Position numbers and translations under genes: made by a program. DNA of 64,000 nucleotides from Eledone cirrhosa. Taxonomy: Eukaryota. Numbering within the stretch: the stretch's first letter is position 1; each line of letters opens with the position of its first letter. Shown here in pieces: positions 10,461 to 11,363 of the stretch. Below the pieces are notes generated by a model. That model was given only the letters and a program-made list of their open reading frames with translations. It was not told the origin of the DNA and made no database searches. The stretch spans positions 10,012 to 74,011 of the forward strand of contig CAXHJY010000376.1 of assembly GCA_964016885.1 (NCBI GenBank), in the 5' to 3' direction.

Positions 10461-10580
10461 ATGGATGAGATTCTACAGGACTAGAGCTGTTTCGTTCATT
10501 GGAAATCATCAGAGATCATCAGGGATTCCTGATGATTTCTGATGAGTGGAACGGTTCTGGTCCTGTGGAATCTCATCTAT
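10461..10580 (+). other. 52-bp inverted repeat (RNA hairpin with 10 G.U wobbles and no other mismatch)
   Basis: Arm 10461-10512 compared by hand with the reverse complement of 10529-10580: 10 differences, all G/A or T/C, i.e. G.U pairs in + strand RNA. Confidence 0.9.
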
Positions 10581-10660
10581 ATTAAAACTTTTATACTCTG
10601 CTATGTATTGAGTACCTTACTTACTGTGGTTACCTCCGATTCAACCCGGAATAACTTACC

Positions 10661-10695
<35 letters not shown>

Positions 10696-10978
10696 GTATG
10701 TATATGTATGTGTATGTATGTATATATATGTATGTATATGTATATGTATGTGTATATATGTATATATATGTATGTATGTGTATATATGTATATGTATATG
10801 TGTATGTGTATGTATGTATATATATGTGTGTATATGTATATATGTATATATATATATGTATATGTGTGTATGTATGTGTATATATGTATGTGTGTATATG
10901 TATATGTATGTGTGTATATATATATATGTATGTGTATGTATGTATATATATATATGTATATATATGTATGTATGTATG

Positions 10979-11021
<43 letters not shown>

Positions 11022-11160
11022 GTATGTATATGTATGTATGTGTGTATGTATATGTATATGTATGTATGTATATGTGTGTATGTATGTGTATATATATGTA
11101 TATGTATATGTGTATGTGTGTGTATGTATGTGTGTATATGTATATATATGTATATATATA
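10661..11160. repeat. TATG/TG microsatellite splitting a structured element
   Basis: Direct reading; the two flanks are complementary to each other. Confidence 0.96.
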
Positions 11161-11251
11161 ACGAAGGAAATGTGGTAGGGAACCAGGTGGACCATAACGC
11201 ACCAAAGTACTCAATACTTAGGGTAGTAGAGTGGGTAATAGGAACAGGTGG

Positions 11252-11339
11252 GACCCCGACGGCTGAGCTCGGGCCATTTCGGCGGCTGATTCTGTCCAGA
11301 ATTGGCCGTCGGGGCGGCTTGGGCTCGGCCGTCGGGGTC
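11252..11339 (+). other. 43-bp GC-rich inverted repeat (10 G.U wobbles, 1 A.C)
   Basis: Arm 11252-11294 compared by hand with the reverse complement of 11297-11339. Confidence 0.9.
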
Positions 11340-11363
11340 TTGCATGTCCTTATATATATATCG

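Follow-up and report, generated by a model that had tools for sequence, protein, structure and literature searches.

A 2.2-kb tract of A>G changes across TA/TG arrays and repeats in a cephalopod genome, probably the fossil of a hyper-edited and reverse-transcribed transcript

In the 64,000-nucleotide stretch of Eledone cirrhosa DNA analysed here (the window), two blocks of unique sequence face each other across a TA/TG array and are complementary in nested order. What are these blocks, and why do their stems contain so many G.U pairs? The original prediction was a single RNA of about 390 nt, non-coding, mobile and almost fully paired, either retrozyme- or viroid-like or derived from a Penelope-like element (PLE), and split in two by a microsatellite. 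The complementary motifs are present at 10594-10603/11224-11233, 10605-10615/11207-11217 and 10625-10635/11185-11196. CTTACC ends at 10660 and its partner GGTAGG occupies 11174-11179, and the array between the blocks is confirmed at 10661-11160. We also confirmed that neither block resembles any other element of the window and that neither contains a convincing open reading frame. The shared motif was considered as the end of a reading frame (..KVLNT*) and rejected, since the frames are short and the PLE ORFs of the window end differently.

Each block is composed of a head and a long local hairpin. Hairpin A in the left block (10463-10578) has 43 Watson-Crick pairs, 11 G.U pairs and 1 A.C mismatch over 55 arm positions. 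Hairpin B in the right block (11248-11343) has 33, 13 and 1 over 47 arm positions. Taking both hairpins, G.U exceeds A.C by 24 to 2 (p=1e-5). The two hairpins provide the top three over-stable windows among 1082 120-nt windows of unique sequence. On the + strand hairpin A reaches -82.5 kcal/mol, as compared to -55.9 kcal/mol on the - strand. If the G.U pairs are replaced by A-U pairs, both hairpins become about equally stable on either strand. The joined blocks fold with -223.9 kcal/mol (z -18, 78% paired), the + strand being stronger than the - strand. Almost all of this stability comes from the local hairpins (z -13.7 and -10.9), and the inner join alone gives a z of -3.1. "Almost fully paired" is overstated for the central part. 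Across the array, the perfect inverted match of 11 bp exceeds what chance would give (reached in 6 of 5000 shuffles), but for the energy of the inner duplex (-44.6) a better value (-50.5) occurs among 1000 shuffles, whose mean is -33.7 with an sd of 4.7. The flanks of 18 other arrays tested give inverted matches of 5-8 bp. With the array kept in the folded sequence, the inner helices form with pair probabilities of 0.91, 1.0 and 0.68.

The right block has many relatives in public sequencing runs. The search matched 24 runs, with a best share of 0.27 and none containing half of the query words; no RNA run is among the 24 listed. Four of them (X1, X3, X5 and X23) were compared over 11155-11572, corresponding to the right block and the following RTE tail. 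Organism A of these runs is possibly a different species from that of the window, and X5 represents a second organism with 13 records. The right block (11161-11352) is an abundant repeat with many variants, 14164 X1 contigs and 33302 X23 reads being found over 11155-11572. Depth, which does not equal copy number, is heavy on the right block and the RTE tail, and the right-unit head is the deepest part of the compared region in X1 and X3. At changed places, a G of the window is read as A in 34 of 64 cases for X1, 33 of 67 for X3, 25 of 42 for X5 and 46 of 119 for X23. Among the rows listed (40 of 122, with the wobble Gs 11251 and 11327 lying outside), in hairpin B at least 11 of 13 wobble Gs correspond to A in the family. 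In X23, A is read by the great majority at the listed Gs of hairpin B (for example 7141/7347 at 11250 and 337/337 at 11304), and G11178 is read as A in 9292 of 9679 + reads. X3 deviates at some sites of the 3' arm, where its depth is low (A in 0 of 163 at 11304 and in 0 of 264 at 11314). Position 11276 shows the opposite trend, with A in the window and mostly G in the family. G-bearing reads at the hairpin sites are a few per cent at most; no piece of these runs spans the stretch, and the edited allele is known from the assembly alone. Flipped mapping of the palindrome was rejected as a cause, as A is found in both arms and X23 reads extend from the head into the 5' arm.

Because at least 11 of the 13 wobble Gs are A in other copies, the hairpin of the family is Watson-Crick, and by this comparison the G.U pairs are changes in the present copy rather than a selected fold. 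The 11 G.U pairs of hairpin A would likewise be A>G edits of A-U pairs, a reading drawn from the partner strand. A second subfamily of the right block, with another palindrome behind 11244, is common, being seen in 268 X1 contigs and 2540 X23 reads. The first bases of this other palindrome resemble the start of hairpin A.

Just downstream of hairpin B lies the 3' end of an RTE-type LINE, whose parent ORFs contain EN, RT and PHD domains. Its 208 nt align without gaps to five sister copies of the window. Compared to the majority of these sisters, it has 21 changes, of which 17 are A>G (17 of 59 A); there are 0/41 T>C, no G>A, 1 A>C and 0 A>T. The A>G changes thus counted are on the sense strand of the LINE. 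The sister RTE copies and the other repeat copies of the window are without such a bias.

The three arrays between the 607-bp copies also contain an excess of G. Together they have 285 G and 7 C, and symmetric ageing is excluded for them because of this imbalance. In most ordinary arrays used for comparison, the fraction of G is 0.18-0.26 and the probability of G after G is 0-0.04; two Gs are almost never adjacent in the ordinary arrays of the window. When the three arrays are pooled (785 purine sites), the G fraction is 0.362 and P(G|G) is 0.288. Seven ordinary arrays give 0.205 and 0.021, and the same arrays with 20% simulated random A>G give 0.368 and 0.31. The three arrays thus look like ordinary arrays with about 20% random A>G changes added. 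Taken as a whole, the sequence from about 9825 to 12019 (2.2 kb) reads as an A>G-hypermutated tract, bounded by two copies of a 607-bp non-coding family (Table 1). In the upstream copy, A>G accounts for 1 of 4 private changes. In the downstream copy it accounts for 3 of 4 changes relative to the majority, one of which also occurs in another copy.

Table 1. Positions of the features in the window; for arrays, the fraction of G, the probability of G after G and the G and C counts are given
Feature	Position	Strand	Remark
607-bp non-coding family, six copies	9255-9824, 12020-12568, 29470-30076, 41844-42146, 53362-53968, 39868-40472		last copy on minus strand
607-bp family copy, upstream border of tract	9255-9824	+	without A>G excess
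TA/TG array, upstream part of hypermutated tract	9825-10462	+	G in excess and randomly placed; 0.34, 0.32; 108 G, 2 C
Hairpin A, 116-nt near-perfect palindrome	10463-10578	+	left block
Left-unit head	10579-10660	-	diverged relative of right-unit head
500-bp TA/TG array separating both units	10661-11160	+	excess random G; 0.38, 0.27; 96 G, 0 C
Right-unit head, abundant interspersed repeat	11161-11238	+	contains, at 11207-11217, the 11-bp motif shared by both units
Hairpin B, terminal palindrome of right unit	11239-11351	+	Watson-Crick in family, G.U-rich here
RTE-type LINE 3' end, 208 bp, with (GAT)n tail	11361-11568	+	A>G hypermutated
TA/TG array, downstream part of tract	11569-12019	+	excess random G; 0.36, 0.27; 81 G, 5 C
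607-bp family copy, 5'-truncated, downstream border of tract	12020-12568	+	possibly lightly edited
RTE-type ORF, PHD finger just after RT	31174-34200	-	
RTE-type ORF, PHD finger just after RT	35299-37257	+	
RTE-type ORF, PHD finger just after RT	49977-53129	-	
LINE 3' part, RT then several C2H2 zinc fingers	56940-58239	+	

The neighbours of the changed adenosines were analysed in one set made of the RTE tail, hairpin A and hairpin B (41 changed and 74 unchanged A). In the hairpins the neighbour states were deduced from the partner strand, which for hairpin A is also the only source of the ancestral state. On the 5' side, A is changed in 12 of 20 cases after U (0.60), 17 of 38 after A (0.45), 6 of 28 after C (0.21) and 6 of 29 after G (0.21). 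On the 3' side, the values are 15 of 27 before G (0.56), 14 of 37 before A (0.38), 8 of 27 before C (0.30) and 4 of 24 before U (0.17). Fisher tests give p=0.02 for 5' U, 0.02 for 3' G and 0.07 for 5' G, the latter not significant alone. ADAR acting on double-stranded RNA leaves one-strand clusters of A>G with such a neighbour pattern, and most densely where the stems are perfect. APOBEC enzymes leave C>T or G>A, DGR-type reverse transcriptases leave A>N, and decay of DNA is strand-symmetric. The strand biases of 24:2 and 17:0 rule out that a DNA palindrome has decayed symmetrically, through CpG loss or otherwise. DGR-type A>N is ruled out by the RTE tail, where the counts of A>G, A>C and A>T are 17, 1 and 0. 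The observed preferences (5' U or A over C or G; 3' G) are consistent with ADAR, the order reported for metazoan enzymes being 5' U/A over G and 3' G over U (PMC9989829).

We next consider whether the two blocks belong to one element. On the - strand, the parts of the left block follow each other as in the right block: a TA run, a head of ca 80 nt, a palindrome of ca 115 nt and a TA run. The two heads are homologous (their local alignment scores 26, a value that 1 shuffle in 2000 attains), and palindromes A and B cannot be aligned (1670 of 2000 shuffles). Upstream of other right-block copies the flanks are mixed, the loose ends before 11171 agreeing at only 0.5-0.67. In 9+2 X23 reads, a joint leads from 11361 back to 11155, so that right blocks follow each other head to tail with a TA run between them. 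Two X3 contigs extend 790 and 291 letters upstream of the head, the direction being deduced from record coordinates. In the window, the right block does not form tandem monomers, for which the size range in non-LTR retrozymes is 150-450 bp. Because of the mixed flanks, the head-to-tail joints and the upstream continuations, the blocks look more like two related units of ca 200 bp placed head to head than like one RNA split by a microsatellite. The apparent central stem would then preferably be explained by a motif common to both units.

A single bipartite element, edited in the same manner and made of left block, (TA)n and right block, is a somewhat unlikely reading of the same data. It would be a non-autonomous element, HINE/Helentron-like or with imperfect terminal inverted repeats, having 11-bp subterminal inverted repeats and terminal hairpins, and lone right blocks would be its truncated copies. 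The symmetric layout (hairpin, motif, array, motif, hairpin), the identical inverted 11-bp motif at 6 of 5000 shuffles and the last helix, which becomes perfect if G11178 is taken as A, all speak for it. HINE/DINE-1 elements, non-autonomous Helentrons, are indeed reported to have subTIRs of 12-15 bp, a 3' palindrome and sometimes internal microsatellites (PMC4067079). However, a distance of 2-4 nt separates their subTIRs from the 5' end, and their palindrome measures 5-10 bp (PMC4067079), whereas here the motif is 140 nt in, the stems are of ca 50 bp and the flanks are TA rather than TT. We found neither the subTIR position, nor the short palindrome, nor the TT target of HINEs and Helentrons. 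The mixed upstream flanks and the head-to-tail right blocks also argue against one element, and all other elements of the window likewise lie between TA arrays. A retrozyme- or viroid-like RNA of ca 390 nt, with a G.U-rich and nearly fully paired fold kept by selection and later split by the microsatellite, is extremely improbable. The z of -18 for the joined fold and the stronger + strand are in its favour. So are a CTGATGA..GAAAC..GTC string on the - strand (10522/10512), the sole such string in the window, and a weak RAGATH-1 hammerhead score (22.3 bits for a cut-off of 56.3). Nevertheless, the G.U pairs of this copy are A-U in the family, the unrelated RTE tail bears the same changes and the inner join reaches a z of only -3. 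The - strand does not have the hammerhead topology of stems I-III, and the right block has no such topology at all. Two + strand candidates have a stem III of 2 bp and require a core tolerant to edits. Thus, what remains of the initial proposal is a non-coding, repeated and mobile-looking sequence with an RNA stage on the + strand, as indicated by the G.U pattern. The selected G.U-rich fold and the assignment to retrozymes or viroids are not retained, the wobble pairs not being conserved in the family and the blocks having neither a foldable hammerhead nor an Rfam family.

Searches for other classes gave little. Rfam produced 0 matches at the gathering score in the window; below it, generic miRNA-hairpin and microsatellite matches appear. 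On either strand, no type I hammerhead with stems I-III folds. Core words of the hammerhead are present without stems in hairpin A on the - strand (10479-10522). Hairpin B, when given the As of the family at 11312-11314, contains a GAAAC-stem-GTC resembling hammerhead stem III, without the CUGANGA core. A decayed ribozyme ancestry of palindromes A and B is possible. No ribozyme was found, whereas viroid-like RNAs have ribozymes in both polarities and a conserved rod-like or branched fold under selection. Neither block matches the two PLEs of the window. The 11-bp motif is absent from one supplement file of PMC8557442, and a motif search in supplement files 1-4 of 8 of PMC9115989 found none. 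For a tRNA-derived SINE, an A-box-like word is seen at 11224, with no B box on either strand and no tRNA according to ARAGORN. Pattern scans of viral contigs and genome contigs gave 0 matches. Four pattern matches in metagenome contigs were attributed to chance, as nothing aligns beyond the pattern. The head-plus-palindrome family has no match in Rfam or in the texts searched, and it may be in print.

We propose that the 2.2-kb tract is probably a genomic fossil: ADAR would have hyper-edited a + strand transcript, which would later have entered a TA array by reverse transcription. Two related repeats of ca 200 bp, each with a head of ca 80 nt and a perfect terminal palindrome of ca 115 nt, and a 5'-truncated RTE copy would have inserted in a TA-rich array, the repeats head to head. 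Read-through transcription would have yielded an RNA with much double strand, formed by the palindromes, the self-complementary (UA)n arrays and the short helices between left and right. In the double-stranded parts, 20-65% of the adenosines became G with the neighbour preference of ADAR; the pattern is observed and the enzyme is deduced from it. A resident reverse transcriptase, most likely that of RTE although a PLE enzyme is possible, would have copied the RNA into the TA array, probably with the target (TA)n priming on the (UA)n of the RNA. This priming is proposed because both ends of the tract lie in arrays. For RTE priming, microsatellite-like template ends have been suggested to play a part (PMC6007223). 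A target-site duplication is not definable, as the tract ends inside arrays. Signs of editing continue into the array that follows the RTE tail, and the tail is therefore not simply the 3' end of the RNA. In this scheme, neither the G.U pairs nor the strand-specific stability reflects a selected RNA structure; both are by-products of editing.

The location of the changes fits this scheme in the two hairpins and in the self-complementary arrays, not in the RTE tail. No antisense partner of the tail was found within 9255-12568 (best duplex -81 kcal/mol, as compared to -431 kcal/mol for a true partner), and a lost or trans partner must therefore be assumed. The edited As of the tail show no preference for paired positions when the tail is folded alone (mean 0.31 versus 0.40). 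Its two stem-loops, with 11 A and 12 A, contain no edited A at all, and the edits are found between the stem-loops (10 of 19 and 6 of 15).

Two other origins of the A>G tract have to be weighed. The changes may have arisen in place and without insertion, either by RNA-templated repair or gene conversion from the edited transcript of the locus itself, or by deamination of adenines in an RNA:DNA hybrid. We consider this improbable. It agrees with the lack of a visible insertion junction or duplication, with antisense RTE copies downstream in the window that could pair with the tail (30476, 40704), and with similar arrays on the same strand at 20201-22805 and 27152-29469. ADAR editing of DNA in hybrids is also reported in vitro, although at A-C mismatches in model substrates (PMC12925331). 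The nearest antisense RTE copy is, however, 19 kb away and is unedited, its 3'-terminal 208 nt having 1 change, and editing is heaviest in the hairpin stems, as would be expected for a folded RNA rather than for a hybrid. An assembly artefact, from edited cDNA or from a systematic base-calling error where polishing fails between microsatellites, is quite improbable. No run piece spans the stretch and G-bearing reads do not exceed a few per cent at the hairpin sites, which would agree with such an error; still, cDNA is not normally taken into DNA assemblies. Systematic clusters of one mismatch type do occur in trace data, as G-to-A (PMC2873906). On the other hand, the 208 nt of the RTE tail align gap-free to five sisters with no G>A or T>C, nearby repeats between equally long arrays are unbiased, and the neighbour pattern is that of ADAR.

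A reverse-transcribed, hyper-edited transcript has a close parallel in retroviruses. Rous-associated virus, avian leukosis virus and HTLV-2/STLV-3 show A>G clusters in reverse-transcribed RNA; those clusters lie in an inverted-repeat region, affect nearly 50% of the As and are attributed to ADAR (PMC12925331). Here, in contrast, the template would be a cellular read-through RNA of ca 2.2 kb containing non-LTR repeats and a microsatellite, presumably in the germline and with no virus. The "DNA editing" by APOBEC in IAP, HERV and AluY similarly fixes a deaminase footprint in a retroelement copy, as clusters of one mismatch type (G-to-A) with a neighbour motif (PMC2873906). The chemistry is opposite in the present case, with sense-strand A>G, an ADAR motif and changes set at the RNA stage. 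In the same work, A-to-G clusters are treated as editing in RNA-derived traces (PMC2873906). In metazoan transcriptomes, young repeats are the main targets of ADAR hyper-editing, with the same neighbour preference (PMC9989829), but those edits are in RNA only, whereas the ones described here are found in DNA. Non-LTR retrozymes and PLE pseudo-LTRs share with our units the size of ca 200 nt and the head-to-tail copies seen in a few reads, and Naiad PLEs share the (TA)n neighbourhood (PMC8557442, PMC7229834). They differ from our units by the absence here of a folding type I hammerhead, by the perfect terminal palindrome of ca 115 nt and by the lack of similarity with the PLEs of the window. In the literature searched (titles and beginnings of abstracts, few subscription papers), we found no animal genome for which non-LTR copies with A>G hyper-editing, or microsatellites with edits, are described; such cases may be in print.

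A-to-I editing is generally regarded as non-inherited. If our reading is correct, a multi-kb cellular transcript has been written back into an animal genome with its ADAR edits, and changes made in RNA can pass directly into DNA. This would matter most in a cephalopod, as this group shows extreme RNA editing. It also carries a warning for genome scans, since strand-specific, G.U-rich hairpins can be scars of editing rather than selected RNA structures. Some papers reportedly argue in general for deaminase-driven mutation mediated by reverse transcription. A broader idea, which we regard as unlikely, is that editing followed by reverse transcription is a routine engine of heritable mutation here and that the one-strand TA/TG mosaic arrays are RNA-editing fossils. 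Transcribed (TA)n would then fold back and be edited, and RTE or PLE enzymes would prime its copying into TA arrays. The G strand of the arrays, including 20201-22805 and 27152-29469, would record the direction of transcription, and edited founders would give new repeat subfamilies.

The two latter arrays flank a + strand LINE (22806-27151). They show an excess of adjacent Gs (P(G|G) 0.25-0.28), and their TACAT units have many more TGCAT variants (16 and 9) than TACGT variants (3 and 0). They likely form a second A>G tract, though CpG loss could add to the TGCAT/TACGT ratio. The sequence at 34400-34843 resembles them. Over the 64 kb, nearly all arrays of TA type have G on the + strand, with almost no C, regardless of RTE orientation. 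Arrays of C type are located only at 213-432, 13087-14456 and 39820-40691, the last one surrounding the single inverted copy of the 607-bp family.

As a whole, the window consists of mobile elements nested among (TA)n/(TG)n arrays. The copies of the 607-bp family are 94-98% identical, with a fixed 3' end and a small hairpin ca 12 nt before it; no terminal inverted repeats were seen by eye and no tRNA was found. A diverged end similar to that of this family is located at 58640-58674. The RTE-type ORFs have a best identity of 53% with database proteins. The two Penelope-like elements, 14534-17435 (-) and 45073-49181 (-), contain an RT and a weak C-terminal GIY-YIG match; we presume that they may belong to the Hydra clade. 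Finally, a block of 655 bp at 13635-14289, inside a C-type array, carries at its ends a direct repeat of 85 bp (89% identical).
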